NCBI GenBank assembly: GCA_046546105.1
Contig: JBKGYN010000003.1
Location: 2,178 to 66,177 of the forward strand
Direction of reading: 5' to 3'
Length of the DNA: 64,000 nucleotides
DNA from: Candidatus Woesearchaeota archaeon
Lineage (GTDB): Archaea > Nanobdellota > Nanobdellia > Woesearchaeales > SKGA01
The notes under the pieces were generated by a model, which saw only the letters and a program-made list of their open reading frames with translations, was not told where the DNA came from and did not search any database. The first letter of the stretch is position 1; each line of letters opens with the position of its first letter. The translations under genes and the position numbers were made by a program. Below are positions 587 through 29,366 of this stretch, one piece after another.

Positions 587-1812
587 GCAGGCGCTCCCAG
601 GAAAATATTGTGTTTGTCGCGTATGATTTTCACTCGCACCGATCCTTTCTCCTTATCAAGTCCTTTGACCGTGATAATCCGCCCTTTCGCAACGCAGAGT
701 CGCTCGTTGGCATGGCGTCCGGGGCTTTTCACTTCTGCTGTGACGACCTGGTTCTTGTGCATCGGTTTCTCAAGCGTCTTATCCTCGTAAATGCCGAATG
801 GGTTGTAATCAGCTTTGGGAGTGAGCGTGATACCGTATTCTTTCTCGAAGGGCTTGAGAAGTGAGAAGAATTCTTCAAACTCCATCTGTGTTTTCACAGG
901 CTTTCGACCGTGCTTGTGCACAAGGTAATTCTGGAATCCGATTGTCGGATAGGGGCTTTTGATTGTCTTGGCGAGCTTGACAAGCGGTTCGATATCGCGT
1001 TTAGGATTGTCCGTGTAGGTTGGGATGACCAGGGGTGCAAGTAATACGGGAAACCCAATCTTCTTGCAATACTCGATCATATCGAGGACATGATCAAGTG
1101 GATACGTCTTGCCGGAGATCTTGCTTGAGACTTCCTTGTCGAGGCTATTGAGCGATAGGTTGATCCTGCCAAGTCCTGCTGCCTTGAGCCTGTCGATAAG
1201 CTCTCGTGTCAGCAGCGTGCCATTCGTGTTGACTGAGATGGTGTTTGTTTTCGGAGAGCGCCGGAGTTCTGTAACAAGCTCCTCGAGAAAAGGATAGAGT
1301 AGCGGTTCCCCGTGCGGACCGATGTTGAATTCTACTGCGTGCTCCTTGTACGAAGCGATCTCAAGTGCTGTCTGTGCGAGATAGTAGGGGTCGATGAGGA
1401 TGTCGTATTCTTTCTTGTTCTGCCCTTCATCAACGCTGCAGTAGATGCAGTTGAGGTTGCAGCCGGTCATGGGTTTGAGTTCAAGAACATTCGTGTTCCT
1501 GTCAACAACCCCGAACTCTCCAGAACCGAGAAGAGGAATCCCGCTGTACTCATCGATGAAGATGACATTCTTGCCGTTGATAACATGAGTGAGATTGTCA
1601 AGCCCTCTATCGATGATCCGATTGACTTTATTGCTTGCTTTTTTCTCACTGACCGAAGGGAATTCCAGAGCGTTGGTCATGATACTGACATCTTGGTCGA
1701 TCTCTTCAAGCTCGCTTCTATCGATGGTGAACTTGTACCTCTTTGCGTATAGCACCGAAACAACCCTCTCATGTTCGTGAAAGGAGAAGTTTTCAAACTC
1801 AAGCACAGTCAT
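583..1812 (-). CDS. Radical SAM protein with C-terminal TRAM-like domain (COG2100-like)
   Basis: CNLNCIYC is a CxxxCxxC radical-SAM cluster motif; the C-terminal ~60 aa (TAEVKSPGRHANERLCVAKGRIITVKGL...VRVKI) resemble a TRAM/OB fold. Confidence 0.65.
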   Translation of the reverse strand: MTVLEFENFSFHEHERVVSVLYAKRYKFTIDRSELEEIDQDVSIMTNALEFPSVSEKKASNKVNRIIDRGLDNLTHVINGKNVIFIDEYSGIPLLGSGEFGVVDRNTNVLELKPMTGCNLNCIYCSVDEGQNKKEYDILIDPYYLAQTALEIASYKEHAVEFNIGPHGEPLLYPFLEELVTELRRSPKTNTISVNTNGTLLTRELIDRLKAAGLGRINLSLNSLDKEVSSKISGKTYPLDHVLDMIEYCKKIGFPVLLAPLVIPTYTDNPKRDIEPLVKLAKTIKSPYPTIGFQNYLVHKHGRKPVKTQMEFEEFFSLLKPFEKEYGITLTPKADYNPFGIYEDKTLEKPMHKNQVVTAEVKSPGRHANERLCVAKGRIITVKGLDKEKGSVRVKIIRDKHNIFLGAPA

Positions 1813-3091
1813 GATTTTTGAAAACGAGAAGTTCTTTAAAAAACATATGGAAAAAAGAGGTTATTTCTGTATAATAACAATCTTTTTAAGTAGTCTTTTG
1901 ATGCGAAATGACAAGTTGGAACGGGCACTTAATTTTGTCGAAAGTCTGATGGTGAGACCGGGCGATAAACTTTATTATTTTGACCCGGAAGGTAAAACCG
2001 GTTCAAAAAGCATTTCTTCAGATGAGAACATACTCCTTTTCGAGCATGGCAGGGAGTTCATGGTCACGGACATGAAAATTCTTGATAGGGATAATAATGT
2101 CTTACGCTATATCGACTTCGGCCACGACCATTCGTTCAACAATCTCGATCTTGATAAGATCGCTAATATACAAGTGTATGTCGATGGCTTCCCGATCGCT
2201 CTTGATACTGATAATTTCAGTAAGAGTATCAAGGAGTCTCCCACATATTTCACCTCGCCTGAAGATCTTGAAGCCCTTGTGGATGATGGTCATGATTATG
2301 ACCTGTTCAAGACCCTTATACCGGATAGTGGCTTGTTCGATTTGACCATTGCAGAGTATATCAATTTCCACCAGTTTTTGATTGACACGATGAAACCTCC
2401 CACCTACGAGGATATCGCCGAATATATGGACGAGATGTATGACGATTCGGATTTGGATTCAGATGATGAAGACTTTGGACTTGAAGAGAACATGCAAAAT
2501 ACAGAATTATTCGCTCCAGGCTATGACACTCCTGAGTTGGTCCCTCCAGAAGATCATGATAGTGAACTCTATACGATAGGATTTCTCAATGAGGATGATC
2601 TCACCAATATCTACGAGAACACGATCATGGACAGCGTTGGTATTGAATTTCTTAATGATAAAGGGGAAATTGATATGTCAAAAGCACATCCTGAACGCCT
2701 CGGTCAGCGAGAGGATTTGGAAAAACCGATCGATGCTTACGAAGCAGAATTTCCCCAATATTATCAGGAAGAAGGGACTCACCTTGAAGACTTCCTTGAA
2801 GAGGAGGATGATTCTGAAACCGCTGTGTTCTACAGTCTCAGAGACATCTATGAAAGCCTTCAAGACCAATACCAGAAAAAGATTGAGTTCGTCTCATATA
2901 TGAGTAGCATGTATTCGGTTGAGACGATAGGCGATATCAGGAATCTTCTTATGACCCGGAAAGTCCCTGAAGAGACAATCGTCCGCTTCACCCGTTCGGG
3001 ACATCTTACTGATACTGTGTTTGAAGAGCCTGTGTTTGAAAAGTACTCTGTCTTATTCGAACATGATAACAACACGATTTATGAGAAGTGA
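1811..3091 (+). CDS. Hypothetical highly acidic protein
   Basis: Long ORF with coding-like composition and extreme D/E content (e.g. DDSDLDSDDEDFGLEEN); no recognisable motif. Confidence 0.5.
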   Translation: MIFENEKFFKKHMEKRGYFCIITIFLSSLLMRNDKLERALNFVESLMVRPGDKLYYFDPEGKTGSKSISSDENILLFEHGREFMVTDMKILDRDNNVLRYIDFGHDHSFNNLDLDKIANIQVYVDGFPIALDTDNFSKSIKESPTYFTSPEDLEALVDDGHDYDLFKTLIPDSGLFDLTIAEYINFHQFLIDTMKPPTYEDIAEYMDEMYDDSDLDSDDEDFGLEENMQNTELFAPGYDTPELVPPEDHDSELYTIGFLNEDDLTNIYENTIMDSVGIEFLNDKGEIDMSKAHPERLGQREDLEKPIDAYEAEFPQYYQEEGTHLEDFLEEEDDSETAVFYSLRDIYESLQDQYQKKIEFVSYMSSMYSVETIGDIRNLLMTRKVPEETIVRFTRSGHLTDTVFEEPVFEKYSVLFEHDNNTIYEK

Positions 3092-8756: not shown

Positions 8757-10511
8757 TCAGGTTTCCACTTGCAGTTTCTGTTTCTGGAGCAGCTTGTAGA
8801 ACCGGTCCCGTTTTTCCATTAGCTTTCTGAACGTCCCTTGTTCCTTGACCCGACCGTGTTCCATATAAACGATCCTATCAACATTCTCCAGCGTCGAGAG
8901 TCGGTGCGCTATGATGATGATAGTCTTACCTTCAATCCTGTCGATAGCATCCTGTATGCTTCGTTCGGTTCTCGTGTCAAGGTGTGAGGTCGCTTCGTCC
9001 AGGATGATGACTGATGCGTTCCTGTAAAGAGCTCGCGCGATGCTCACTCTTTGTCGCTCTCCGCCGCTGAGCTTGTATCCTTTCTCTCCGATGATCGTCA
9101 GGAGTCCCTGCGGCAATTTCCTGATGACCTTGCTAAGCCCTGACGCTCGTATCACATAGTCGAGTCGTTTCTTGTCCACGCCGTTTTGCGAGAGCGTGAT
9201 GTTCTCTCTCAACGTCATGTTGAACACTTCCTGATCCTGTGACACGACTGTCACTTCGTTTCTCAAGTTATAGCGCTTGATGTCAAGCAGGTTTCGTCCA
9301 CCTATGCGTATCGCTCCGTTTGTCGGTTCATAGAGTCGCAGGAGCAATTTGATGAGTGTCGACTTTCCGGCTCCCGAACCTCCGACTATTCCTACTTTCT
9401 CGTTTCTCCGGATAGTCAAGTCAAGCCCTTGCAGTATGTCTTTCTGGTCATATCTGAATCTTACCTTGTCAAAGCGTAGCTCCTTCCAGCCTCGCGGCAC
9501 ATTTTTCTTTCCTTGCTTGTCGAATGGTTTTTCATGGAGTTGCAGTATCTCTTGCAGTCGCTGCATCTTCACCTTGAACTGTATGAGGTTCAGGCTGATG
9601 TTTGAATACTTCGAGATACCATTCGCAAACCGGGTATAGTACCCTGTAAATACCACGATCCGCCCTACCGTTATCGCTTGCGCCACCACATCGTATCCTA
9701 CAATCAGGAAAAAGATCGCGTGGCCGAGTGTGATGAGCACGTTCACCGCTTTCATCTTGTTCTGTGAAGTCACTTTATGCTTTTCCCAGAGCTGCTCGTA
9801 TTGTCTCTCGTGCGAGTGCATCGAGTTCTTGAATCGCTTGTGCAGCCCAAGCGATTTTATTGTCATGATGTTGCTTGCCGCTTCGTGCGCCTTTCCGGAG
9901 AGCGTTTCCTGTTTCTTGTGCAGATCCTTCGATCGCTTGTATAGCTTGTTCTCGTAGTACTTCTCCACCGCTATGTAGATCGCTGCGAATAGGAGCATGA
10001 ACATCACGTACTTCCAACCGACAAAGAAGAATATGATGATCGCGCCCACGAAGTCGATGAGAAACGCCGCCAGTTCGTTCGATAGCAGTCGTGCAAAATC
10101 ATGCGAGCTTTTCGAACCGCTTTGCACCCGTTGCACCTTGTTGCCCGTGTTCTCCTTCTCATGCCAGAACAGGTCGAGTTCGAGCAGTTTCGTGAAACCT
10201 CTCATCCGTAAATGTTTCTGCGTTTCCATCCCTGCCTTCTGTATGAAGAATTTCGAGTAGAATCGTGTGATGACTTTCACGACTCCTACCACGAATATCC
10301 CTCCGACTAGCCAGTGGAATTCTGTCAACACCTGCCCTTGCTCGTAGTTGATGAAGAAGTCCACGATGCGTCCTGTCAAGTATACTGCCAGGAAGGTCAG
10401 TGAACCGCTTGCTATCCTCAACGCCAGCATGAGAAGCAGTTTCAGTCTGTTGCCAGGGTACGACCTGTACAGGTCTTCGAAATAGTTCTTATACGTATAG
10501 TCTTCCGCCAT
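8757..10511 (-). CDS. ABC transporter, fused permease/ATPase (MsbA/multidrug exporter type)
   Basis: N-terminal 6-TM region; Walker A GGSGAGKST, signature LSGGERQR, Walker B ILDEATS. Confidence 0.85.
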   Translation of the reverse strand: MAEDYTYKNYFEDLYRSYPGNRLKLLLMLALRIASGSLTFLAVYLTGRIVDFFINYEQGQVLTEFHWLVGGIFVVGVVKVITRFYSKFFIQKAGMETQKHLRMRGFTKLLELDLFWHEKENTGNKVQRVQSGSKSSHDFARLLSNELAAFLIDFVGAIIIFFFVGWKYVMFMLLFAAIYIAVEKYYENKLYKRSKDLHKKQETLSGKAHEAASNIMTIKSLGLHKRFKNSMHSHERQYEQLWEKHKVTSQNKMKAVNVLITLGHAIFFLIVGYDVVAQAITVGRIVVFTGYYTRFANGISKYSNISLNLIQFKVKMQRLQEILQLHEKPFDKQGKKNVPRGWKELRFDKVRFRYDQKDILQGLDLTIRRNEKVGIVGGSGAGKSTLIKLLLRLYEPTNGAIRIGGRNLLDIKRYNLRNEVTVVSQDQEVFNMTLRENITLSQNGVDKKRLDYVIRASGLSKVIRKLPQGLLTIIGEKGYKLSGGERQRVSIARALYRNASVIILDEATSHLDTRTERSIQDAIDRIEGKTIIIIAHRLSTLENVDRIVYMEHGRVKEQGTFRKLMEKRDRFYKLLQKQKLQVET

Positions 10512-10739: not shown

Positions 10740-11615
10740 TCAATTACTTCTATGTATCGACAGCTTGTGATGGGAGTAGGTGAGTTGCGCGCCGAAGAGA
10801 AGCACATGCGCGGAATAATACAGCCACAAGAGCATGAACAGTAGCGATCCTGCAAACCCGTAAGTGGTCAGCAGCGGCGCTACGGAGACATACCAACCGA
10901 TAAGAAGTCCTCCGAGAAGAAAGAGAAAAGTGGCTGTCCCTGCACCGAATGCCGCACTCTCCATGTTTATATGACGTTCTGAAAGAAAGCGATAGCTCGT
11001 GAAAAAGAATATGAAAACGAACACGATTGAGATGATAGTAAGAAACAGGTTGACGAGTACAGGCATCGAAAGCGAGGGAAATTGCGAGGCGAGTCGTGAT
11101 TGTATCGAGTGCAGCAGAATCCTTCCTATGACAAAGAGCCCGAAGCTGAGACCTGTGAGAAAGACAAGCAGAAAACCATACAAGTTCCGTTTGAGAAATA
11201 TCTTGACATTAAGCCGTAACGGTCGCGCCGTCCGGTAAATCATATCGATAGATTGCTTGACATGGATGATTGCCTGCGAAGCGAGAAAGAAAAGCGCTAT
11301 GAGACTCAATATGATGACCAGGATGTTTGTCTCGAGAATGTGAAAGCTTGAGACCAGACCCGAAAGGATTTCTGTAGCAGGCATACCAACAGTTTCTGAA
11401 AACACCAGGTAGAAGTGAGTGGTCACCAGCTCGGAGCGCAGGAATATCTGCAAAACCTCCATTATGATAAGAAGGAATGGTCCTAGCGAGAGGAGCGTGA
11501 AAAAAACAAGTGCAGCAGAGAGCCAGGTGATGTTTTTTTCATATGCCTCCTCTAGAGTGTTCGAAAAGACCTTTGCCAGGAACGAATAGCTTCTTTTTGT
11601 TGTCTTGCTGCCCAC
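10740..11615 (-). CDS. Polytopic membrane protein, YihY/BrkB-like
   Basis: ~6 predicted TM helices; N-terminal ITWLSAALVFFTLLSLGPFLLII resembles the YihY family signature. Confidence 0.45.
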   Translation of the reverse strand: MGSKTTKRSYSFLAKVFSNTLEEAYEKNITWLSAALVFFTLLSLGPFLLIIMEVLQIFLRSELVTTHFYLVFSETVGMPATEILSGLVSSFHILETNILVIILSLIALFFLASQAIIHVKQSIDMIYRTARPLRLNVKIFLKRNLYGFLLVFLTGLSFGLFVIGRILLHSIQSRLASQFPSLSMPVLVNLFLTIISIVFVFIFFFTSYRFLSERHINMESAAFGAGTATFLFLLGGLLIGWYVSVAPLLTTYGFAGSLLFMLLWLYYSAHVLLFGAQLTYSHHKLSIHRSN

Positions 11616-11725: not shown

Positions 11726-11836
11726 ATGGTCGAAGATAGGGAGTTCATCAGGTGCCCGAAGTGCCATAAGAAAGTCCACGTGACCGAGAGTATCTGTCCT
11801 CACTGCGGAGAGCTTCTCAACCGCCCGATAGTTTAG
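11726..11836 (+). CDS. Small zinc-ribbon protein (36 aa)
   Basis: MVEDREFIRCPKCHKKVHVTESICPHCGELLNRPIV has two CPxC pairs; not in the ORF track because it is under 60 aa. Confidence 0.3.
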   Translation: MVEDREFIRCPKCHKKVHVTESICPHCGELLNRPIV

Positions 11837-11841
11837 GATTA

Positions 11842-12921
11842 TCACTTGAAAACTTTCTTCACATATTGTGAGCCCATGAGTTTAGCCACGGCCATGTAAT
11901 CAGGCTTGAATCTTATCGTATCCCCGACCTGATACTCCGTCTCATTCTTAGTGAATCGATAGACCGTCATGTCAGAAGTCGTTCCGACAAACTCTACATC
12001 AGGATCCTTCGGCACCAGTAAGTGTTCATCGACATCAACGATACCGAAATCGACAATCGCCTTATAGTTAGTATCGCTTAATGTCTCTTTGGTCGAGATA
12101 TGACCCACATTTCCGTCAGAGATCGTTCCCACAGGCCGGTTCGGTTTCTCCCAGAACTCGATGATGTCAGTGGAGAATTCAAAAGAATCCGTGTGAAAGT
12201 CAAGAAACTGCTTATTATCATATGGTGATGTACCGAGAAAGATCGCTTCACCGATCCGGAAGTGGTTGATGAGGTTATCGACTTCGGGACCCAGAAGAGG
12301 AAGCGTTATAGAGGTCCCCCCTGAGATGAGATCTATCTTAGTGTCGAATCGTTGTTCGAGCAATTCCTTATACAGCGATAATTGTACCAGCTTATCATAG
12401 CTTGGCTCGACCCCATACATACAACCCAGGTTCGTCCCTATCCCCATGATCTTAACGTTCGAGAGGTTGAAAGCTCTAGTATACAGATCAACCAAATCCT
12501 TACCAAGGATCCCTTCGCGTAGTTCGCCGAGTTCGATCATGATGATCGTCTTATGGATTTTTCCCTGTCGTTTGGCCTCCTCATTTATATTCTCCATCGT
12601 GCGTAGTGTCGTGTTATAGGAGATGTCTGCATAGCGTACCACATCGTCCAGTTCATTCAATGAAGGAGGCTTGATATATGCAGTCGTGATGTCCGGATCG
12701 ATTTCTTTAATGGTCTTGAGATTAGTGATTCGGGAATCCCCTATCGAGTTTATATCTTTGATCACATCTGCAGACAGGACCTTTCTAAGCGCGTCCTTGC
12801 TACCGGCCAGCGCCTTAACTACAAGGGACCACTCCATCCCATGTTCTTTCATCAGCCTGTGTGTCTTCTCGATGTTAGAGATGATCTTTCCAGTATCAAT
12901 TATCAGTTCTGCCATTTTCAA
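11842..12921 (-). CDS. PLP-dependent amino-acid racemase, YhfX-like (COG3457, alanine-racemase N-domain fold)
   Basis: LVVKALAGS (PLP-lysine region), GDSRITNL, and MIELGELREGILGKDL...IMGIGTNLGCMYGV closely parallel E. coli YhfX (MVELGDLREGIL...LVGIGTNLACFGGV). Confidence 0.7.
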   Translation of the reverse strand: MKMAELIIDTGKIISNIEKTHRLMKEHGMEWSLVVKALAGSKDALRKVLSADVIKDINSIGDSRITNLKTIKEIDPDITTAYIKPPSLNELDDVVRYADISYNTTLRTMENINEEAKRQGKIHKTIIMIELGELREGILGKDLVDLYTRAFNLSNVKIMGIGTNLGCMYGVEPSYDKLVQLSLYKELLEQRFDTKIDLISGGTSITLPLLGPEVDNLINHFRIGEAIFLGTSPYDNKQFLDFHTDSFEFSTDIIEFWEKPNRPVGTISDGNVGHISTKETLSDTNYKAIVDFGIVDVDEHLLVPKDPDVEFVGTTSDMTVYRFTKNETEYQVGDTIRFKPDYMAVAKLMGSQYVKKVFK

Positions 12922-13031
12922 ATCGTCTGTAATCCAAAAGAAAAGAAATCCAGATTAATATTTAATCATTTTTATTCAAGAGTAGTGAACTTGAGCAAGA
13001 TTTTTAAATTGAATTTCATTTTTTCTCTAGT
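12922..13031. promoter_or_regulatory. AT-rich divergent promoter region (racemase <-> ATP-grasp ligase)
   Basis: 110-bp AT-rich spacer with several TATA-like runs (tttttaaatt, ttaatatttaat) between divergent genes. Confidence 0.35.
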
Positions 13032-14267
13032 ATGAAACAGCCGTATGTGTTCATCTCACCAGAATACACCAACTCCCGACCACTCATCGATCTCATGACT
13101 GGTTATGAGCCTATTTTTTTGTGTATCAACGCCCCGTATGATGATCCTAACACTATCGCATTCCCCCGGGCACGAACCCTGGAAGATTTCCGGAGGCTTA
13201 TCGATAATTCGCAGCAGATAAAGAACCTTATCGAAAACCTGAGCAGCAAAGAGAAGGTGTATCTCAAATCATTTGAAAACAGAAAAGAACTCACCAGCAT
13301 CCAACGGGGAAAACTGGAAGTCATCGGTCTTGATCATGTTACGCACAAGTTTTTCAGCGATAAGTGTAACCAGTATGAACTCCTGAAGAATGTTGTTCCC
13401 ATCGTCAATCACACAGTCACTGATAAGGAAAATGCAAAAGACCTTTTTGAAAAACATCAGACTGAGAACGGTACCTTCACATCATTGCCCTTCGGGTTCG
13501 GAGGTAATGGAGCGAAGGTGCATTCGGATAAGGAGCAGTTCTTGAAATACATACGTTCAGTGCCTGATGAGAAGTTCATCGTGGCAGATGCTAAACAGAT
13601 TCGAAGCAATTACTCGATTGAAGCCTTGATCGCTAACGAACATGAGATCGCTATCTTCGGACTTTCAGAATCAATTCTTGATGGTACCTGTTCGACAGCT
13701 GCCTGGTCTTCCCCCGAAATATCTCCTTCATTGAAACGTCAGATTACAGAAGCTGCGTATCATGCATCCAAGAAAATCGCGGAACAAGGATATTTCGGTT
13801 ATGCGGATCTTGACTTTTTCGTTGATAAGCAGGATAATCTGTATTTTGCGGAATTGAATCCTCGTTACGCCGCATCCACTGCTGAAAAAATGTGTGCTTT
13901 AGAACTCTCCCGTCCACCCGGACATCCGACCATTCCCGATCTTGAATTGATGATACATCAACAAAGGACCATGGGAATGTATTCGGTGTGGTCTGAACCT
14001 GAAAATATCAGATGGTATAAAGAAGAATTTTGGATGACTGATGGTGTGGTCATCAATGATTACTCCAGACCCGACATTTCTGAGCAGGAACTCTTCAGAC
14101 AGAAGGGAACAAACATTTATGGAGCTGCTAAGGTCGGAACAAGAATCGGCAGCGAGGAGAAAAAGATCGGCAAGTTAGTATCCGTCTATGATAATAACAT
14201 CACAAAGAACCAAGCGTACCAGCATGCTCAGCGCATCAAGAGCGAATTATTCCAAAAATCAGAATAA
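13032..14267 (+). CDS. ATP-grasp ligase, D-Ala-D-Ala-ligase-like
   Basis: C-terminal GYADLDFFVDKQDNLYFAELNPRYA matches the ATP-grasp Mg/ATP-binding motif (R.DFF...g..y..E.N..PG). Confidence 0.65.
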   Translation: MKQPYVFISPEYTNSRPLIDLMTGYEPIFLCINAPYDDPNTIAFPRARTLEDFRRLIDNSQQIKNLIENLSSKEKVYLKSFENRKELTSIQRGKLEVIGLDHVTHKFFSDKCNQYELLKNVVPIVNHTVTDKENAKDLFEKHQTENGTFTSLPFGFGGNGAKVHSDKEQFLKYIRSVPDEKFIVADAKQIRSNYSIEALIANEHEIAIFGLSESILDGTCSTAAWSSPEISPSLKRQITEAAYHASKKIAEQGYFGYADLDFFVDKQDNLYFAELNPRYAASTAEKMCALELSRPPGHPTIPDLELMIHQQRTMGMYSVWSEPENIRWYKEEFWMTDGVVINDYSRPDISEQELFRQKGTNIYGAAKVGTRIGSEEKKIGKLVSVYDNNITKNQAYQHAQRIKSELFQKSE

Positions 14268-14272
14268 AAATT

Positions 14273-15214
14273 CTAAAGCGAATTATACTTATCTTCTACA
14301 GACTTGCAGATTGTTGATGCCAGATTGTACAAGCCATAGATCGTTCCCAGACCTGTTCCTGAACCATTTATCTCAAGCAAGTGATCTCCCTTGAAGTCGA
14401 TGGCCCCATAAAACAAGCCAGTCTGATCGATGGCATCATAGACAACATCGAGTTTCTGTTTTTCAAACGGTACGAAATAAGTGTCGATGGTTTTCTCCTT
14501 GCCGACATCCCCTGATCGGAGGAATTCCTGAGCGAATAAAGGTTTTCCAGCCATCACGATATATCGGTCTTCTTGTTTTGAGCTATTCACGCGTTCAAAG
14601 GAAGAATTCCTGATGACTTCTTCCGAGATAGATTCAAGCGATCTGTCTGGTGAAAGATACTCCACACCTCGAGCCATGAACCCTATATCGGGTTTGAGAA
14701 CGACACCATTTTCCTCTTTGATCAGATCGTAGAGCTCGTCCCGAGAATCCACTCTCCATGATTCGATAAATGGCAGATCAAGTTTTTTTTGCTCAGGTTT
14801 CAACTCGAAATAAGTGGTGCGAGCACTGTTCAGCATCAATGAAACCTGATTTTCAAGGTTGAATAGGTGGTTAAAAAACGTCCGTTCATTCTGGAATTTT
14901 GAGGACTCATCTTCCCCCAGCCCTCTGATGAAGACAACATCTGCATCAGGTCTCGAGTTCTCATTGATCTGTTCTGTCGAGACCGAGGATATATCTCTGG
15001 TAAACTGGTTCTCTCCGCCGTTGAGTTTCCATTCTGAAGCGAAATACACTCCAGAATCATCAGCTTTGATATCTCCAGGATGGATATACGTGACCTCATG
15101 ACCTCTTCTTGAGAACAGGTTGTAGAGATAGATATCTTCAGAAAACGAGACTTCCCCATTTTTTCGGTTGATGAAATCAGTCATTGATTTATTTGATGTG
15201 AACGTGATCTTCAT
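14273..15214 (-). CDS. ATP-grasp ligase, glutathione-synthetase (GshB)/RimK-like
   Basis: N-terminal MKITF...LFSRRGHEV resembles the GSH-S N-domain; VVLKP.IG..ARG and GLFYGAIDFKGDHLLEINGSGTG are the ATP-grasp C-terminal motifs. Confidence 0.65.
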   Translation of the reverse strand: MKITFTSNKSMTDFINRKNGEVSFSEDIYLYNLFSRRGHEVTYIHPGDIKADDSGVYFASEWKLNGGENQFTRDISSVSTEQINENSRPDADVVFIRGLGEDESSKFQNERTFFNHLFNLENQVSLMLNSARTTYFELKPEQKKLDLPFIESWRVDSRDELYDLIKEENGVVLKPDIGFMARGVEYLSPDRSLESISEEVIRNSSFERVNSSKQEDRYIVMAGKPLFAQEFLRSGDVGKEKTIDTYFVPFEKQKLDVVYDAIDQTGLFYGAIDFKGDHLLEINGSGTGLGTIYGLYNLASTICKSVEDKYNSL

Positions 15215-15226
15215 ACTCTAACACCT

Positions 15227-16315
15227 CTAATTTGCTACTTCTATCTCTTCGTTCAGAAGTGTTGCTTTTGCAAGCTTTGTCTTTTGGACATGCTCATAGA
15301 CGAGCTTATCGAAATATTCAGCCACTCGTTCGCCAAAAGTTGGTCCGATATCGCTGTAATTGGCGTAGGCTGCAGGGTTCATCAGTTCTGCCTCGATAAC
15401 ATGAGGTTTCCCGTTGATTTCGATGAGATCGATCCTGCTATAATGAACAGAGTATCCCCAATCACGCCATACTTTCAGAACTGACCGTGCGAATGAGATC
15501 TCTTCTTCAGTGGGTTCGTAAACGGAAACTGTACCGCCCATTGATTCGTTTGACCGATACTCATCCTCTTTTTTCGGATTAGGCATCTTCAGTACTGCAT
15601 GCGAGAATTCATCACCGAGGAATACAAGGCTTTTCTCTCCGTTCTTTCCACTAGGATAATATTCCTGAGCGATATAGTGTTCCTTGTTAGCGATTTGCTC
15701 TTTGATTTCAGTGACCTCTGAAGTCTTGATCTGGCCAGCACCCCCTTCACCGACCTTAGGCTTGATGACGAATTCTTCTCCAGCTTCCATCCGAGCGATA
15801 ATATTCTCATCAAGATGGTACGTCTTTACAGAAGGTACATTCTCCCTGTTCAGGTCAATCAAGTATTCTTTCGATATGTTTTTCCGGATGGTTTTCGGAT
15901 CGTTGATGACAAGACCACCAGTATTTTCGAATACCTGTACCATCGAGAGGAATTTCTTCAGTGATAGCTCGTCTTTGGAAAATTCCAGAAATTGATAGAC
16001 AAAGAATATATCGATTTCGTTTATCGAGACCGGCTCGACAAATTTTTGTTCATTATATGAGAACATCCGGGAGAATCCAGTCCCATTGAAATCATGCCAG
16101 TTGACGAAGTAAACATCATAGTTTTTAAGCATAAGAGAATATGCGAAGTGGAGGGAATCCCGTTCATCGGTATTATAGTAGATCTCAAAGTGATTTTCGG
16201 TCGAGCGGACCCGGTCTTCTGCCAGAGTGAATAAGACTTTTTTCGAGGAGGTTTTCAGGACGTCATCAACAGTGATTGGTTTATGAAGTTTTTGGTCGGT
16301 CATCATAGCTGCCAC
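15227..16315 (-). CDS. ATP-grasp ligase, GshB/RimK-like (second copy)
   Basis: FVIKPKVGEGGAGQ and SRIDLIEINGKPHVIEAELMNP are ATP-grasp motifs. Confidence 0.65.
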   Translation of the reverse strand: MAAMMTDQKLHKPITVDDVLKTSSKKVLFTLAEDRVRSTENHFEIYYNTDERDSLHFAYSLMLKNYDVYFVNWHDFNGTGFSRMFSYNEQKFVEPVSINEIDIFFVYQFLEFSKDELSLKKFLSMVQVFENTGGLVINDPKTIRKNISKEYLIDLNRENVPSVKTYHLDENIIARMEAGEEFVIKPKVGEGGAGQIKTSEVTEIKEQIANKEHYIAQEYYPSGKNGEKSLVFLGDEFSHAVLKMPNPKKEDEYRSNESMGGTVSVYEPTEEEISFARSVLKVWRDWGYSVHYSRIDLIEINGKPHVIEAELMNPAAYANYSDIGPTFGERVAEYFDKLVYEHVQKTKLAKATLLNEEIEVAN

Positions 16316-16605
16316 TCCGTTTTTAAGTAGACGAAAAATATATTATTTAAATTTTTAGTTTTTTAAAACTATATTAAATTAAATTTAAAGATCGAAAAAC
16401 AATATGAAAAAGGAAAAGAAAAGCAAATTGAACTTCATTGAAATAAAAAAGAAAAAATAAGATAAATTAATTAAAAATCCAAAAAAACCACTCAAAAATG
16501 GAAATGAATACACCCCCGAATTCCGAACCAAAACAAGACCCAGAACACACAACTTCAAAGACAGAAGATACCAAGACAAGGCATTGAAAAAATTCTTATA
16601 TATGA
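16316..16605. promoter_or_regulatory. AT-rich divergent promoter region
   Basis: 290-bp very AT-rich spacer between divergent genes; only poly-A/T and purine-rich runs, no long ORF. Confidence 0.35.
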
Positions 16606-17604
16606 GTGATGCATCACGAAGCGATAATGATAAAAACCGGGACTAAAATCGATTTCAAGAAGTTTCGCCGATTGAAGATAGGTAAGAATACATTCAAGAA
16701 CACCGATCTTTCAATAGGGCTTGTAGCCCCTTCGTACTGGGTTTCGAAAAAGTCCCGACTGTTGGCTAAAGAACGGCTGAAACATCTCGGTTTCAGCAAG
16801 ATTGATGCTGAGTCAGATCTGTTCAAGAAAAGATATTTCTGGGGTGGAACCCCGAAACAGAGAGCCGAAGTCATCAACAAGTTCTTCAGCGACGATTCGA
16901 TTGACATCATCTGGTGTTTAAGAGGAGGCTTTGCTTCAATCGCGGTGCTTGAGCATCTTGATTTCGATACCATCGCAAATAACAAGAAGCTATTTATCGG
17001 CTACAGCGACATTACCACCTTGCAACTTGCTATGATGGCAAAATCAAACCTGCCATCTGTACAGTTCTACATGCCAGGAACAAAGAACTGGATGACCAGC
17101 GAGAACGACATCAAATACCTATCAGCAATCTTGACAGGTTCTGATTATAAAGCCAAAATCAAAGATAAGCAGATTTACACTTCAGGGTTTGCCGAAGGCC
17201 AGATCGTCGGCGGGTGCATGGACCTTGTGGTGTCAAGCCTGGGAACTCCTCATGAGATTGATACGGATGGCAAAATCCTGTTCATCGAGGATGCCAACAT
17301 CCCCCCTGACAGATTCTATAACATGCTTTATGTCTTGAAATTCGCAGGTAAACTCAAGAATCTTAAAGGTTTGATTGTCGGTAAGATCTATAATTGCAAA
17401 GACTACCAAGAGTATCTCCAGCTGTTCCTTGATGAACTCCGTGAAACAGTGACCTACCCCATCATCATCGATTATAAGTCAGGCCACACGTTTACAAAAA
17501 TTCCTATCCCGCTTGGCGGATACTGCGTTATCGACACCGATGCAAAAGAAACCCGTTTCTCATTCCCCGAATCATTCAAAGAGTTTCTTCCAGTAAAGCA
17601 GTAA
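16606..17604 (+). CDS. LD-carboxypeptidase (peptidase S66, LdcA/MccF-like)
   Basis: IGLVAPS, GGF and GYSDIT (Ser nucleophile) motifs of the S66 family; the likely start is the internal Met near 16627. Confidence 0.75.
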   Translation: MMHHEAIMIKTGTKIDFKKFRRLKIGKNTFKNTDLSIGLVAPSYWVSKKSRLLAKERLKHLGFSKIDAESDLFKKRYFWGGTPKQRAEVINKFFSDDSIDIIWCLRGGFASIAVLEHLDFDTIANNKKLFIGYSDITTLQLAMMAKSNLPSVQFYMPGTKNWMTSENDIKYLSAILTGSDYKAKIKDKQIYTSGFAEGQIVGGCMDLVVSSLGTPHEIDTDGKILFIEDANIPPDRFYNMLYVLKFAGKLKNLKGLIVGKIYNCKDYQEYLQLFLDELRETVTYPIIIDYKSGHTFTKIPIPLGGYCVIDTDAKETRFSFPESFKEFLPVKQ

Positions 17605-22045: not shown

Positions 22046-24619
22046 ATGGGGTCGTTTGAAGAGATTGATCAGTCAGATCTGACACCTGCGATGCGACAGT
22101 ACGTTGATATCAAGCGCCAGAACATGGATTCGATAGTCTTGTTTCGCATGGGCGATTTCTACGAGACATTCTATGATGACGCCATTGTAGCGGCTGACGT
22201 TCTCAACATCACGCTCACGTCGAGAAAGCAAGGCAAGGGCAAAGCTCCACTTGCAGGCATCCCGTTCCATGCTGCCGAGACATATGTCAAGCGTCTCATA
22301 GAAGCCGGTAAAAAGGTCGTTATCGTCGAGCAGCTTGAAGATCCGAAGAAAGCCAAGAAGGTCGTCAAGCGCGGTGTCACGCGCATCATCACCCCCGGAA
22401 CTGTTCTCGAGGATAACATCCTCTCCCCTACCACGAATAATTATCTCGCCAGCATCATTCTTGAGGGTAAGCGCTTTGGGATTGCCGTGTGCGATGTGTC
22501 CACTTCGGAAGTCTTCATGACACAGAGTGATGATAAGAACTTGCTTTTCGGAGAGTTAGAGAAATTCCGTCCTGCTGAGCTTGTCGTCAAGGGTTCCTTC
22601 GCCTCGCAAGAAGTGATTGATACCTGTCAGCATCTCGATATCACAATCTCCCGCGTTGATGACGAATTGTTTGATGTGGAGACCGCACTTCACATAGCTG
22701 GTAAGCAATTCGACAAGAAAAAGCTCAACGCGATTTCAAAGCATAACGAGCTGGCCATTTCCGCTCTCGGCCCGTTGGTCTCGTATGTCAAGCGCAACCT
22801 CCTCAAGGACGAGACTTATCTCTCATTTCCAGAGCTCTATTCATTAAGCCAATCGATGGTGCTCGATCAGACGACGCAGCGTAACCTCGAGCTCGTGTCA
22901 AACCAGATCGATGGAAGTCGTAAAGGCACCTTATTCTCCACGCTCAATCACACGATGACTGGCATGGGCGCTCGTTACCTGCAAAAGCTCATCCTCTCCC
23001 CCTCACTCGATCTCGATACGATCACGAAGCGCCAGGATGCAGTCGAATCCTTATTCCAGAATCCCATCCTCCTTGGCGATTTGCGCGAATCGCTTCGTGG
23101 TTGTAGCGACCTCCAGCGTCTTGTCGCCAGAGCGACCTACGGCTCCATCAATCCAAAGGAAGTCATCAGCCTGGCTCAGACCATCGAGACATTCAGCATC
23201 ATCAAGAAATTGCTCACGCAGACTGAATCCTCATTGTTCTCGGAAAGTCTTGATGTTCCTGACAACGAAAAGCTCGCATCCTCCATCCGCTCGACGATAA
23301 AGGATGAGCCTGCGACCAGTGTCCGCGAGGGTAATATCATCAAGGAAAGCGTGAGTGACGAACTTGACGAGCTGCGCACCCTCGCTTCCGACTCGAAAAC
23401 ATGGCTTCGTGATTTTGAGGAGCAGGAGCGTGAAAAGACCGGCATCAAGTCCTTGAAGGTCAAGTATAACAAGGTCTTCGGTTATTTCATCGAAGTCACG
23501 AAGGCAAACCTTCATCTCGTCCCCGATCATTACATCCGCAAGCAGACGCAAGTCAATAGCGAACGATACATCACTGACGAGCTCAAGGATAAGGAATCTC
23601 AACTTCTCGGCGCGCGAGAGCGTGCGAACACACTGGAGTTCGAACTCTTCCAGGAAACCATCAGGACGATCGTGTCGTATCAGGAAACGCTCAAGCGATC
23701 AGGGTCAGTACTCTCTCTCATCGACGCGATGCAGAGTCTCGCCCATGTGGCAAACAAGAATTCGTATTGCCGTCCGGAACTATCCGCTTCAGGCGATACT
23801 GTAATCCAGAAGGGTCGTCATCCTGTTGTTGAGCAACACGCTTCCTTTGTCGCCAATAACACCTTGTTCAAGGAGAAGGACACACTCCATGTCATCACAG
23901 GTCCTAATATGGCCGGTAAGAGCACGTATTTGCGACAGGTAGCGCTCATAACTCTCATGGCCCAGACTGGCAGTTTCGTTCCTGCAACGGATGCTCGTAT
24001 CGCGATTGTCGATCGCATATTCACGAGAGTCGGAGCTCACGATAATCTTTCCCAAGGTGAATCCACGTTCATGGTGGAGATGACCGAGACAGCCAACATC
24101 CTCAAGAACGCCACATCGAAATCGCTCATCATCCTTGATGAGATCGGTCGCGGGACATCGACATATGATGGTTTTTCCATCGCCTGGGCTGTCGCCCGTC
24201 ACATCGTTACGCGCATCGGTGCTAAAGCTCTCTTCGCCACTCATTATCACCAGCTCAACACGCTTGCTGGCGAGTTCGAGAGCGTGAAGAATTATCATAG
24301 CACTGTCGAGGAAAGCGAACACGGTCTCATATTCCTTCGTAAAATCCTTCCAGGCAGCACGGACAAGAGTTTTGGAGTTCACGTTGCCAAGATTGCAGGT
24401 GTTCCTGACGAGGTCATCAGTGATGCCCAGTCCATGATGGAAACATTGGAAGCTGAAGATAGGATCCTCGCACAATCGCAATCACACAAGAACAGCGACG
24501 GCTCCACACAAAAACAAAATATTGGGCCGCACGAACAACAATCCCGATCCGAAGAAGTCACTGAAGAGAAGCTCGGCAGCACAGGCCAGCTCTCTCTTGA
24601 GTCATTCGAGAAAAATTGA
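22046..24619 (+). CDS. mutS: DNA mismatch repair protein MutS (bacterial MutS1 type)
   Basis: N-terminal mismatch-binding region (TPAMRQY...GDFYE...F), Walker A GPNMAGKST, DE box ILDEIGRGTSTYDG, HTH at the C-terminus. Confidence 0.9.
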   Translation: MGSFEEIDQSDLTPAMRQYVDIKRQNMDSIVLFRMGDFYETFYDDAIVAADVLNITLTSRKQGKGKAPLAGIPFHAAETYVKRLIEAGKKVVIVEQLEDPKKAKKVVKRGVTRIITPGTVLEDNILSPTTNNYLASIILEGKRFGIAVCDVSTSEVFMTQSDDKNLLFGELEKFRPAELVVKGSFASQEVIDTCQHLDITISRVDDELFDVETALHIAGKQFDKKKLNAISKHNELAISALGPLVSYVKRNLLKDETYLSFPELYSLSQSMVLDQTTQRNLELVSNQIDGSRKGTLFSTLNHTMTGMGARYLQKLILSPSLDLDTITKRQDAVESLFQNPILLGDLRESLRGCSDLQRLVARATYGSINPKEVISLAQTIETFSIIKKLLTQTESSLFSESLDVPDNEKLASSIRSTIKDEPATSVREGNIIKESVSDELDELRTLASDSKTWLRDFEEQEREKTGIKSLKVKYNKVFGYFIEVTKANLHLVPDHYIRKQTQVNSERYITDELKDKESQLLGARERANTLEFELFQETIRTIVSYQETLKRSGSVLSLIDAMQSLAHVANKNSYCRPELSASGDTVIQKGRHPVVEQHASFVANNTLFKEKDTLHVITGPNMAGKSTYLRQVALITLMAQTGSFVPATDARIAIVDRIFTRVGAHDNLSQGESTFMVEMTETANILKNATSKSLIILDEIGRGTSTYDGFSIAWAVARHIVTRIGAKALFATHYHQLNTLAGEFESVKNYHSTVEESEHGLIFLRKILPGSTDKSFGVHVAKIAGVPDEVISDAQSMMETLEAEDRILAQSQSHKNSDGSTQKQNIGPHEQQSRSEEVTEEKLGSTGQLSLESFEKN

Positions 24620-24639
24620 ACTGGAAAAAACCCTTTACG

Positions 24640-26601
24640 ATGACAGACACTAACGATATCCGATTGCTTCCTGACGAGCTTATCAATAAGATCGCTGCTG
24701 GCGAGGTCATCGAACGTCCCGCCAATGTCGTCAAAGAAATCGTTGAGAACGCTCTTGACGCAGGCGCTAGGAAAGTCAACGTCTCGCTTGAAGATGGTGG
24801 TAAGAGTTTCATCCGCATAGAAGACGACGGGAGCGGCATCAGCGACATCACAACCGCTATAGAGCGTCATGCTACAAGTAAAATCCACACTGAAGAAGAC
24901 CTCGATCGCATCAGCACTCTTGGTTTCAGGGGAGAAGCGCTTGCCAGCATCTGCGCCATCTCGAAAGTCGAAATCCAGTCGAAAACAGAAATGATGAGCG
25001 AAGGGATCAAAGCAATCATTGAAAACGGTTCCGTGCTCAAGACCTCTAAAGTCCCGATGGATACTGGCACCATCATCACGATCAGGAATCTGTTCTACAA
25101 CACGCCCGCTCGTCAGAAATTTCTCAAATCGACTGCTGTCGAGAGGCGTCATTGTCAGGACATCCTGACCAAACTCTCCTTGTGTCAGCCTAAGGTCGAC
25201 ATTCGCCTGTCACATGATGGTAATGAGCTTCTTCACGCCACCCCCCATGATGATCTCAAGCAACGCGTAGCCAGTATTTATGATGTCGAAACCGCAAAGT
25301 CAATGCTTCCAATCAGTTTCGAGGATGATTTGTTCCGTATCACCGGTCTCACAGGTATTCCTTATAGCACAAGAAAGGACAAGAGTCGCCAGACCATCCT
25401 TATCAACCATCGTCCTGTTTCAGCTCCTGCTGTACGTCAGGGAGCGTATGACGCCTACCAGTCGCTTCGTTTCCTCGATCAGCATCCTGTATTCATCATT
25501 TCTATCGAATTAGATCCTACATTGGTCGATGTGAACGTTCATCCGACCAAGCAGGTTGTTCGTCTTTCTCACGAGGAACAGCTCGAGCGTGCTGTCTTTG
25601 AAGCTTGTACAAAAGCTCTGGAGAGCAACAACCTTACTCCTGAAGTGAATGCTTCAGAAAAAGTCTCTTCCAAACCTCAACAAACGAGTTTTCCCCCTCC
25701 AGAATTTCTCCCGTCTGAAATCCATCCTGCTCCTGATGATAAGCAGACACTTCTTGATATCCAACCAGAACCGGAACACCCATCACGATCTCATGAACCG
25801 ATTATGACCGGAAAGGAAAGCATCGTTGCCGATGACAGAGAGCAATATATCCAACAAGACCATATATCTGGCGAGAAACAGCCAGTCACGAACGAGACCC
25901 GTCCTGGAACCACAGGTTCACAGGATAATATAAGTGTCGAGCACGATAAGACAGCTCAACCCGCATCCGAGGAGAGGACAACCCCTAATGTTTCTGAAAC
26001 AGGAAAAAGTGCTTTTCATCATGATTTCGGCATCACCAGGATTTTCGGCCAATTATCACGCCTGTATATTCTTGCTGCATCAAGCAAGGGTCTTGTGATT
26101 ATTGACCAACATGCTGCTGAAGAGAGAATCCTCTTTGAGGAATTTCTTGACGGATTCAAGAAGGATTCAGTACCCTCGCAAGCACTGTTTAAACCTATCA
26201 TTTCGGAGGTTTCACCGTTGCAGATGGAAGAATATCAGGCTAATGCCGAACTCCTTTCAAAAGCAGGTTTTCGTATCGATGAATTCGGCGAGACCGAAAT
26301 CAAGATTTCTGCGATACCGGAGCTTTTCGGTAATATCGAGAAATCCTTTTTTACCGAGATTCTTGACGAGTTCAGTCTCATCCGTAAAGGTAAAGTCACT
26401 TCCTCTTCTCTACACACACTTGCTACAAAGGCTTGTAAGGCTGCCGTCAAAGCAGGTGATGAGCTCACTCCGCCCCAGATGAAACGCTTGATTAAACGCA
26501 TGGAATCTTGTAAACGTCCTTTTACATGCCCGCACGGTCGTCCGACTATCATTTCCATAACTCCGTACGAGCTTGAGAAGATGTTCCGTCGCAAAGCTTG
26601 A
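24640..26601 (+). CDS. mutL: DNA mismatch repair protein MutL
   Basis: GHKL ATPase motifs (IAAGEVIERPANVVKEIVENALDA, DDGSGI, GFRGEAL); C-terminal dimerisation domain with an endonuclease-like region; the ORF track starts at a TTG overlapping the mutS stop, the ATG is at 24640. Confidence 0.85.
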   Translation: MTDTNDIRLLPDELINKIAAGEVIERPANVVKEIVENALDAGARKVNVSLEDGGKSFIRIEDDGSGISDITTAIERHATSKIHTEEDLDRISTLGFRGEALASICAISKVEIQSKTEMMSEGIKAIIENGSVLKTSKVPMDTGTIITIRNLFYNTPARQKFLKSTAVERRHCQDILTKLSLCQPKVDIRLSHDGNELLHATPHDDLKQRVASIYDVETAKSMLPISFEDDLFRITGLTGIPYSTRKDKSRQTILINHRPVSAPAVRQGAYDAYQSLRFLDQHPVFIISIELDPTLVDVNVHPTKQVVRLSHEEQLERAVFEACTKALESNNLTPEVNASEKVSSKPQQTSFPPPEFLPSEIHPAPDDKQTLLDIQPEPEHPSRSHEPIMTGKESIVADDREQYIQQDHISGEKQPVTNETRPGTTGSQDNISVEHDKTAQPASEERTTPNVSETGKSAFHHDFGITRIFGQLSRLYILAASSKGLVIIDQHAAEERILFEEFLDGFKKDSVPSQALFKPIISEVSPLQMEEYQANAELLSKAGFRIDEFGETEIKISAIPELFGNIEKSFFTEILDEFSLIRKGKVTSSSLHTLATKACKAAVKAGDELTPPQMKRLIKRMESCKRPFTCPHGRPTIISITPYELEKMFRRKA

Positions 26602-28451: not shown

Positions 28452-29366
28452 TTAGAGAGTCGCCAGATAGTCTTTGATATATGCATGACCGTGCTTTCTC
28501 GAAAGCTTTGTTAAGGCATGATGTGTTCTTGAACCGTACTGTGCTGCCTTTTTTGGGCGTTGCGAGAATGAGACTTCAAGACCGAGTTGTTTTGCCGCTT
28601 CCCTCAGGATCAGTTTGCTTCCTCGTTCTGATAGCTTCCATTTAGCAGGAATAGTCATCGCTTTCTCAATAACATCTTCATCCAAAAAAGGTGCGAGTGC
28701 AGTTACGTTGAAGTGTCTTGTGAGTGCGAGTTCTCTGAGAAGGTCTCGCCTGAACATCTTATCAAGACCGTTCCAGCATTCAGCATGGACATTTTCAGAA
28801 TCGGCATGGCGTTTGTATCCTGCAAATATCTCTTCGCTGCCGAGTCCTGTGAAAATGTGGGTTATACCAGGGTTCTCTTTCTTGAGTTGTTTTATCGCTT
28901 CTGCCTCAACGCTCCCTACACCGATATTCACAGCGTTCACCAACTCAGGCCCAAGTATTGAAGCTGTCTCTTTGAACAGTTCTTCTATGCGCTCGAAGTT
29001 GCAAATCTCTTCAATATATTCGAAACCGAGTTTTTCTGAAGTGTCTCTTGCAGCCAATATGTCTTCAGGAAGTTTCTGCCCGGGATTGTCTTGGAATCCG
29101 ATGCTAACTGCTGTAAACGGTCGGGCGTTTTTTTTGAGGATGAAACCGATAAGTGTGGAGTCTATCCCTCCAGAGAACAAGAGACCTATGGCTCCCTGAT
29201 CTAACGCCTGATCAGCTTGCTCGAGAATTGTTTTCTCAAGTAGCGTTCCGATCATCCCGACAGCTTCTTCGTGAGTCTTTAGCGTATCGATTTCAGACCG
29301 TTCTCGTATATGGGCTATATAATTTTGCCATTCAGTTGTTGTTGTCGGGAGTCTCATCGTCAACAT
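28452..29366 (-). CDS. Asparagine-synthetase-domain PP-loop ATP pyrophosphatase
   Basis: PP-loop LLFSGGIDSTLIGFIL; overall AsnB C-terminal domain architecture. Confidence 0.6.
   Translation of the reverse strand: MLTMRLPTTTTEWQNYIAHIRERSEIDTLKTHEEAVGMIGTLLEKTILEQADQALDQGAIGLLFSGGIDSTLIGFILKKNARPFTAVSIGFQDNPGQKLPEDILAARDTSEKLGFEYIEEICNFERIEELFKETASILGPELVNAVNIGVGSVEAEAIKQLKKENPGITHIFTGLGSEEIFAGYKRHADSENVHAECWNGLDKMFRRDLLRELALTRHFNVTALAPFLDEDVIEKAMTIPAKWKLSERGSKLILREAAKQLGLEVSFSQRPKKAAQYGSRTHHALTKLSRKHGHAYIKDYLATL

Follow-up and report, generated by a model that had tools for sequence, protein, structure and literature searches.

A mosaic racemase, ATP-grasp ligase and S66 hydrolase cluster in a Woesearchaeota archaeon, and its possible role in making a D-amino-acid peptide

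What might an archaeon do with an amino-acid racemase, three ATP-grasp ligases and a hydrolase of the LD-carboxypeptidase type encoded side by side? The question is raised by positions 11842-17604 of a 64,000-nucleotide stretch of contig JBKGYN010000003.1 (assembly GCA_046546105.1, Candidatus Woesearchaeota archaeon), which was analysed as a whole and is called the window below. An archaeal large-subunit (LSU) rRNA at 62786-64000 attests to the archaeal host, and the same locus is also found on two Logan contigs. A first-pass annotation made from the letters alone had placed five genes here, namely the racemase, three ligases that we call G2, G3 and G4 in their order along the window, and an S66 hydrolase; all of these open reading frames (ORFs) are present as described, with domains borne out by Pfam and NCBIfam. 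It had further proposed that the racemase feeds the ligases, that these build a D-amino-acid peptide without ribosomes and that the hydrolase acts on the product. This chain is backed by conserved gene neighbourhoods, as detailed below, and a D-amino-acid peptide pathway, partly supported and on strong comparative evidence, is the best reading of the locus. Put more sharply, the proposal is that the five genes are a mosaic cluster by which a small D-amino-acid peptide would be built without ribosomes and then trimmed; in our judgement it stands at about even. No protein of the five reaches the curated cut-off of any characterised enzyme among the NCBIfam-type models.

The G4-G3 pair and a recurring bacterial module

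G4 lies at 15227-16315 on the minus strand (362 amino acids from a GTG codon; the public gene calls start at ATG 16306, giving 359 amino acids). It matches GSH-S_ATP (PF02955) with 35 bits for a cut-off of 23, keeps the ATP-grasp catalytic residues and has a distinct N-terminal motif, e.g. VFFVNWxD. Against curated models it scores 52 bits for DcsG (cut-off 360), 43-51 bits for GshB (272-299), 30 bits for the RimK family (143) and 21 bits for LysX (276). The best match of its profile in the PDB is DcsG (6jil, 55 bits), and a Foldseek search with its AlphaFold2 model (predicted local distance difference test score, pLDDT, of 88) returned DcsG, GshB, RimK and ArgX at the top, in that order (probability 1.00 for DcsG, GshB and RimK); the likeness to the graspetide ligases PsnB and MdnC is less close than that to RimK and ArgX/LysX. 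DcsG is hence the closest solved relative of G4 both by sequence profile and by fold. In the D-cycloserine pathway, DcsG acts on a D-amino acid supplied by a co-encoded racemase (DcsC/DcsG). G4 and DcsG are nevertheless only 18% identical, no other dcs genes are present here, and DcsG cyclises its substrate rather than joining two molecules.

G3 (14273-15214, minus strand, 313 amino acids) begins 12 base pairs (bp) downstream of G4 on the same strand, and the two genes are probably co-transcribed. It reaches 17.6 bits on GSH-S_ATP and 17-25 bits on the GshB models, and its profile weakly matches GshB and the G domain of cyanophycin synthetase (E 0.002-0.04 for the latter). When the two profiles were compared by hhalign, G3 and G4 were related with 97.7% probability, and G3 is the more divergent of these two paralogues. 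Residues K174, E215, R217, D273, E281 and N283 of G3, which are invariant across the archaeal and bacterial homologues, fall at the ATP-grasp Lys, Glu-x-Arg, Asp and Glu-x-Asn positions. The G3 of the window is 31% identical to that of a Pacearchaeota locus, and a metagenome scan with an archaeal-G3 pattern gave no match. Both proteins share their fold and their Mg/ATP-binding motifs with GshB and with RimK/LysX/ArgX, and the addition of an amino acid to a terminal carboxylate would fit; yet their scores lie 5- to 10-fold under the equivalog cut-offs, and there is no GshA, LysW carrier or S6 to accompany them. The GshB/RimK-like type that the first-pass annotation gave to G3 and G4 is thereby retained.

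The neighbourhood of G4 was followed through other genomes. A scan taking one genome per species yielded 61 loci, with G4 homologues 40-51% identical to that of the window, and all of these loci were searched with the window proteins and with the proteins of the neighbours. By record title they come from Burkholderiales and other Betaproteobacteria, Obscuribacterales/Melainabacteria, Acidobacteriota (mainly Pyrinomonadaceae), Spirochaetes and one Pacearchaeota metagenome-assembled genome (MAG). An Asp-type, pyridoxal-phosphate (PLP)-independent racemase lies directly upstream of G4 and on the same strand in 45 of the 59 loci that have upstream sequence, and G3-like genes are found at 39 of the G4 loci. 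A third ligase, a protein of about 430 amino acids from the ATP-grasp_4 subfamily that we call G430, completes the module: racemase, G430 and G3 accompany G4 in 19 of the 34 loci with enough flanking sequence, and racemase and G430 in nine more. The four genes make up one co-directional operon in five MAGs of the Cyanobacteria/Melainabacteria lineage (L028, L030, L038, L039 and L041), four labelled Obscuribacter-type and one 'uncultured cyanobacterium'. The clustering exceeds chance, since parts of the cluster come back in one unrelated genome after another. On the CuyB cysteate racemase model (cut-off 190) the module racemases obtain 195-230 bits, and on an aspartate racemase subfamily model 162-227 bits; they probably act on an acidic amino acid. 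Where bacterial loci are without the Asp-type racemase, no substitute racemase was seen, and the genes upstream are unrelated (TctC, PrpD, multicopper oxidase and others). We found no published description of the module, the Iyer/Aravind 2009 amidoligase survey lying outside that search, and no curated family model that assigns it a function.

How does the window compare with this module? It carries a G4 orthologue and, immediately downstream, a G3 homologous to that of the module. It has no Asp-type racemase upstream of G4, an OrnR-type racemase being found 3.4 kb away instead, and no G430-type third ligase, G2 being present in its stead. G2 was also considered as a diverged equivalent of the bacterial G430, an idea rejected at an hhalign probability of 1.3%. 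On these sequence comparisons the G4-G3 pair would be the archaeal version of the widespread bacterial module formed by an Asp-type racemase, G4, G430 and G3, and another racemase and another third ligase would fill the equivalent positions in the archaeon of the window.

Three further loci show how G4 changes company. In the Pacearchaeota locus (L057), the racemase, G4 and G3 genes overlap and are followed 42 bp later by an S66-DUF1861 fusion (617 amino acids, 11937-13790 of that contig), then by a nitroreductase. A related metagenome contig (P0020) carries the racemase, G4, a 308-amino-acid protein and the nitroreductase, without S66 and with a separate GH130 gene. On a contig of uncertain origin (L004), the racemase, G4 and a G2-like gene whose product is 33% identical to G2 of the window have overlapping frames, and an AAT-family hydrolase and DUF3335 follow. 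G4 is thus partnered by G3 in many genomes, by G2 in two and by S66 in two archaeal lineages. The closest G4 homologue of all (50% identity) is found on Spirochaetes MAG contigs (L008 and L055) that have no racemase, G3 or third ligase nearby. It is flanked by a unit of 2,4-diaminopentanoate dehydrogenase, thioesterase and amidohydrolase, the dehydrogenase being two genes away, and by an ISKra4-family transposase. 2,4-Diaminopentanoate dehydrogenase is an enzyme of ornithine fermentation, and this context hints that the locus may be mobile and tied to the metabolism of ornithine.

It should be mentioned that another gene recurs beside the bacterial G4. In 21 loci (L006, L012, L015, L017-L019, L023, L024 and 13 further Acidobacteriota loci), a protein of 930-1060 amino acids with Cytochrome_P460 and MtrC-like multihaem matches is encoded directly downstream of G4 on the opposite strand, between G4 and the G3/G430 pair where that pair exists. 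This neighbour may be there through lineage synteny, or because it is functionally tied to the module.

The racemase, G2 and the S66 hydrolase

The racemase gene occupies 11842-12921 on the minus strand (359 amino acids from a TTG codon, or 357 amino acids from ATG 12915 in the public gene calls). Residues 8-230 of its product match Ala_racemase_N (PF01168), a fold-type III PLP domain, with 51 bits for a cut-off of 24.1. The NCBIfam Orr model (racem_Orr, NF040742) gives 274 bits, under its cut-off of 480, and the protein is accordingly a family relative of Orr, not an Orr equivalog; PDB sequence searches, with the single sequence and with a profile, returned no match. According to a 2025 study of Salmonella OrnR, Lys36 and Cys164 are the two bases, Asn161 stands in place of the usual stacking His, and the active site is lined by Arg129, Arg220 and Tyr349 (PMC13397332). 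An alignment of our racemase with 13 homologues shows K36, R135, N164, C167, R222 and Y342 to be invariant. K36 and the N-x-x-C spacing (N164/C167) correspond to Lys36 and Asn161/Cys164 of OrnR, and R135, R222 and Y342 were paired with Arg129, Arg220 and Tyr349 by position alone, not by direct alignment. With its catalytic residues and N-x-x-C spacing kept, the protein is very probably an active OrnR-family racemase, and the possibility envisaged in the first-pass annotation that it might be a PLP enzyme other than a racemase recedes with the retention of the OrnR catalytic Lys and Cys. Its substrate, judged from the family, is most likely a basic amino acid, e.g. ornithine or lysine. It is alike Salmonella OrnR, Clostridium sticklandii Orr and Staphylococcus aureus SfaC in its fold-type III domain, its Lys36/Cys pair and the Asn replacing the stacking His, but its gene context is unlike that of the ornithine fermentation operon and unlike that of the DOKDC operon of PMC13397332.

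The racemase belongs to a large family (more than 4000 homologues), the closest members of which are 52-66% identical to it. The nearest (L074, 66% identity) is encoded on a contig that carries a GNAT acetyltransferase gene, the racemase gene and a convergent G2-like gene whose product is 37% identical to G2; the gene for the next (L075, 58% identity) lies 27 bp downstream of a Ddl-type ligase gene. All three members of the closest branch (the window, L074 and L075) therefore adjoin a gene for an ATP-grasp amino-acid ligase, and it is chiefly on this ground that the racemase is taken to supply G2. Further out, the homologues with 52-57% identity are those of Bacteroidota, Cloacimonadota and Thermoplasmata. 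As a separate observation, a GNAT gene (about 150 amino acids) almost always precedes these, overlapping or adjacent to their start (L070-L073 and L076-L079, bacterial and Thermoplasmata), a two-gene unit that perhaps serves the N-acetylation of a D-amino acid.

G2 (13032-14267, plus strand, 411 amino acids) has weak generic ATP-grasp matches in a Pfam search. It displays a three-domain ATP-grasp fold in which the E-x-N Mg site and the catalytic residues are kept, and it is an ATP-grasp of the PurK/biotin carboxylase/L-amino-acid-ligase type, of a rare subfamily. The Ddl-like label of the first-pass annotation had to be given up, as neither Dala_Dala_lig_C nor TIGR01205 exceeded its cut-off. 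The family is tiny: an exhaustive search of 1.84 billion proteins gave 12 representatives at E<=1e-30, a word-index homology search returned the query itself and nothing else, and a metagenome scan with a pattern of the family produced no match. We compared G2 with the L-amino acid ligases and their relatives BacD, BL00235, LdmS, BesA, PGM1 and PylC. It has the three-domain fold and E-x-N site of the L-amino acid ligases (LdmS, BesA, BacD) but lies under all equivalog cut-offs, with 36 bits on the LdmS model (cut-off 475), and members of its family reach 26-49 bits on BesA (cut-off 750).

The S66 protein (16606-17604, plus strand, 332 amino acids) contains both the N and the C domain of its family (Peptidase_S66, PF02016, 104 bits; Peptidase_S66C, PF17676, 93 bits). 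Its PDB matches are LdcA (6uuk, 91 bits) and MccF (83 bits). The Ser-Glu-His motifs G-Y-S134-D, I-E228-D and G-H294 are equated with the LdcA/MccF triad by motif position alone, and the protein is by all appearances a serine hydrolase of the LD-carboxypeptidase/MccF family. Although both domains and the expected motifs are there, it scores 112 bits on the LdcA equivalog (PRK11253/NF008424), under the cut-off of 378, the archaeal host lacks its own murein, and microcin C genes are absent. The S66 proteins of the window and of the Pacearchaeota locus are no more than 26% identical, which suggests independent recruitment of S66 rather than shared ancestry of the arrangement.

A proposed pathway and its rivals

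From the genes present, their folds and catalytic residues and their recurrent neighbourhoods, we infer the substrates, the order of the steps, the product and its role as follows. The OrnR-type PLP racemase (Lys36/Cys167) would convert an L-amino acid, of the kind expected from its family, into the D-form. G2 would then activate a carboxylate as an acyl phosphate and couple the D-amino acid to a second amino acid, a step suggested by the pairing of racemase and G2 in two organisms and of racemase and a Ddl-like ligase in a third. By the logic of fold and family, G4 and G3 would each add one residue to the free terminal carboxylate via an acyl phosphate, as GshB does, to give a tripeptide or tetrapeptide or a short oligomer. 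Finally, the cytosolic S66 Ser-Glu-His hydrolase would cut a terminal amide of the L-D type, either in the product itself or in a by-product, and might thereby serve maturation, turnover or self-protection, as proposed from the chemistry of the family and from the independent association of S66 with a second DPANN lineage.

The nearest precedent for a racemase coupled with such a ligase is the racD-aslA operon, in which the genes for an aspartate racemase and for an ATP-grasp D-aspartate ligase lie together (PMC4155827). In Lactococcus lactis and Enterococcus faecium this operon follows the same logic, a D-amino acid being ligated via an acyl phosphate (PMC4155827), and the bacterial and Pacearchaeota modules likewise have an Asp-type racemase. 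Here, by contrast, two or three ligases of apparently other ATP-grasp subfamilies are present, a peptidoglycan precursor pathway is not, and the racemase of the window is of the OrnR PLP type. More generally, the cluster resembles the Alr-Ddl, DcsC-DcsG, GshA-GshB and L-amino-acid-ligase pathways and is a member of none, since all equivalog-level tests failed and substitutes stand in for three of the neighbours that define the bacterial module.

Several observations weigh against a single pathway. The five genes are split over both strands and must form at least three transcription units. The racemase of the window is a PLP-dependent enzyme of a basic-amino-acid family, and elsewhere the module has a PLP-independent Asp-type racemase; because of this difference in type, the racemase may serve G2 alone, or neither ligase set. 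No Asp/Glu racemase (PF01177 homologue) occurs in the 64-kb window, to which that search was confined. The racemase homologues of 52-57% identity pair with the GNAT acetyltransferase and not with ligases. G2 and the bacterial G430 are of different subfamilies, the G2 type being common to L004 and L074 only. Last, S66 is not found within 10 kb in any bacterial module locus, and it is missing from one of the three DPANN-type loci (the P0020 contig).

These points feed the chief rival, in which two independent units happen to adjoin: the racemase and G2 would make a D-amino-acid dipeptide, and G4 and G3 (with or without S66) would make a separate product from a D-acidic amino acid whose racemase is encoded elsewhere. 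Such a division is possible, though we rate it clearly below the single pathway. Racemase and G2 do occur without G4 or G3 on L074, but this contig is 2 kb long, so the absence of G4 and G3 there is uninformative. G4 and G3 occur without G2 or an OrnR-type racemase in the Pacearchaeota locus, on the P0020 contig and in bacteria, the usual partner of G4 is an Asp-type racemase, and G2 and G3 are convergent in the window (gap of 5 bp), and are therefore on separate transcripts. On the other hand, the G2-like gene of L004 comes directly after G4 with overlapping frames, so that G2-type and G4-type ligases work together at least once, and the lack of an Asp/Glu racemase in the window counts against this division too.

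The other explanations are each less likely than that of two units. One of them, the salvage of bacterial peptidoglycan peptides, would have S66 remove the terminal D-Ala from stem tetrapeptides, the racemase turn the D-form into the L-form and the ATP-grasps re-ligate or modify the fragments. It draws on the membership of S66 in the LdcA family and on the murein lytic transglycosylases carried by Woesearchaeota and Pacearchaeota, which may feed on bacteria (PMC9723730, PMC8204110). It appears unlikely to us: free-living bacteria have conserved the ligase module without any S66, a sign of biosynthesis, there is no Mpl/Mur-type ligase, importer of peptides, amidase or muramidase in the vicinity, an OrnR-type racemase is not expected for D-Ala or D-Glu, and the score of S66 on the LdcA model is far under the cut-off. 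The link to peptidoglycan, poly-gamma-glutamate or microcin C that had been suggested for the locus fared poorly in a similar manner, there being no Mur ligases or CapB-like genes in the window. A storage or osmoprotective poly-amino acid, either cyanophycin-like or poly-Asp/Glu-like, polymerised by the GshB-like ligases and degraded by S66, we also hold to be improbable. RimK-type enzymes do polymerise glutamate, G3 weakly matches both GshB and the cyanophycin synthetase G domain, and the hydrolase beside the ligases varies by lineage (S66 in the window and in L057, AAT/DUF3335 in L004). Nevertheless, the cyanophycin synthetase matches are marginal and come without a Mur-like M domain, S66 enzymes are exopeptidases for small substrates, and three different ligases suggest a defined sequence, not a homopolymer.

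Could the ligases instead modify a protein or a ribosomal peptide, by C-terminal tailing as in RimK or by macrocyclisation of the graspetide type? G4 does resemble RimK and ArgX/LysX and, less closely, PsnB and MdnC, and a potential substrate might be the product of a 29-codon ORF (MEMNTPPNSEPKQDPEHTTSKTEDTKTRH, 16498-16587, plus strand), which is rich in Thr, Ser, Lys, Asp and Glu. This ORF, in the AT-rich spacer that separates G4 from S66, does not figure in the public gene calls; it may have arisen by chance or may encode a small peptide. The idea has little in its favour: DcsG and GshB outrank RimK and the graspetide ligases, G4 is tightly and repeatedly coupled to a racemase of free amino acids, and no conserved small ORF or LysW-like carrier turned up, the small ORFs of the other loci not having been searched. 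To our knowledge, moreover, archaea have no ribosomal protein S6, which counts against S6 tailing of the RimK kind. Least probable of all is that the ligases add tails to cofactors (CofF/MptN/MfnD type), or that the adjacency has no functional meaning. MptN is matched by G4 with 33 bits and by G3 with 19 bits, and MfnD by the G2-like protein of L004 with 24 bits; these scores are ten-fold under cut-offs of 350-400 (350 for MptN), and the assignment of G4 and G3 to cofactor ligases was rejected. The host is a DPANN archaeon, the window has no methanopterin, F420 or methanofuran genes or other cofactor genes, and the neighbourhoods are conserved. The first-pass annotation had itself asked whether the ligases might prove to be cofactor enzymes scattered in related genomes, where in fact they are clustered. 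An assay would more likely than not show the enzymes to be active on amino acids and inactive on cofactor substrates.

Origin, surroundings and significance of the cluster

Returning to the cluster itself, its genes appear to have gathered from several sources. The nearest relatives of the racemase are of Bacteroidota/Cloacimonadota type, that of G4 is in a Spirochaetes MAG and that of G3 in Pacearchaeota, and G2 belongs to its tiny family; the cluster looks like a mosaic. The GC content of the cluster equals that of the rest of the window, with no anomaly. On both grounds a recent transfer as one block finds no support, and neither does the suggestion that the group was acquired as a single module. 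A neighbour-joining tree of G4 was too crude to settle the direction of transfer. The genes themselves have a GC content of about 43%, against 24% and 26% in the two divergent spacers, whose AT-richness had already been remarked upon and is confirmed here: 116 bp with 24% GC between racemase and G2 (12916-13031) and 302 bp with 26% GC between G4 and S66 (16307-16608). The former presumably holds two putative promoters, to judge from its sequence.

At lower window coordinates than the cluster lie an ABC exporter (ABC_membrane and ABC_tran, 8757-10511) and a YihY/BrkB membrane protein (Virul_fac_BrkB, 103 bits, 10740-11615), both on the minus strand, co-directional with the racemase and downstream of it, with gaps of 226 and 228 bp along this stretch. 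They are candidate accessory genes, and could conceivably serve in the export of the product. ABC exporters are also found not far from the module in 12 Pyrinomonadaceae loci; this recurrence is confined to that family and may be lineage synteny. Between the YihY/BrkB and racemase genes, a 36-codon ORF (MVEDREFIRCPKCHKKVHVTESICPHCGELLNRPIV, 11726-11836, plus strand) with a CxxC...CxxC zinc-ribbon pattern stops 5 bp short of the racemase stop codon and is absent from the public gene calls. It was considered as a LysW-like carrier and dropped, as it has no acidic C-terminal tail.

The flanking genes are otherwise of the housekeeping kind (GINS, Cdc6/Orc1, CTP synthase, thioredoxin reductase, thioredoxin, TrpRS and MutS/MutL). 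The last two form a tandem of bacterial-type MutS (857 amino acids) and MutL (661 amino acids) at 22046-26601 on the plus strand, in this DPANN archaeon. A 304-amino-acid protein (28452-29366, minus strand) consists of the synthetase domain of asparagine synthase alone (PF00733, 107 bits), without the glutaminase domain. Three long ORFs went unmatched in Pfam at E<=1e-4 or 1e-5 (42455-44965, minus strand, 836 amino acids; 58261-59733, minus strand, 490 amino acids; 1811-3091, plus strand, 426 amino acids), and the 1-kb bins 46001-47000, 51001-52000 and 55001-56000 are markedly low in GC (0.35-0.37, for about 0.44 in the window).

What would such a cluster mean for its host? The genomes of DPANN archaea are minimal, and these organisms presumably live on other cells. 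Free D-amino acids aside, we know of no D-amino-acid peptide in archaea, and the pseudomurein peptide is all-L; a set of racemase, ligases and LD-peptidase dedicated to a D-amino-acid peptide would, if true, be a first for DPANN archaea. We may go one step further and imagine that Woesearchaeota and Pacearchaeota borrowed a bacterial-style ligase module and joined a racemase and an LD-carboxypeptidase to it, to make their own D-amino-acid peptide resembling a peptidoglycan stem, which would either decorate the archaeal envelope or, in dealings with bacterial hosts, mimic or antagonise the peptides of the bacterial cell wall, and that the same ligase module in Melainabacteria-lineage MAGs, Acidobacteriota and Burkholderiales makes a new and widespread class of D-amino-acid peptide metabolites. 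This extension is a speculation that we regard as doubtful. Even if the product were ordinary, such as a small osmolyte or an intermediate of a salvage route, an annotation gap would be filled for four protein families. As the enzymes are soluble and the assays simple, the product should be directly identifiable. The operon that unites one racemase with three ATP-grasps is conserved in dozens of genomes of Obscuribacterales/Melainabacteria, Acidobacteriota (mostly Pyrinomonadaceae) and Burkholderiales, and together with the archaeal cluster it may point to an unstudied class of metabolites in DPANN archaea and several bacterial phyla.

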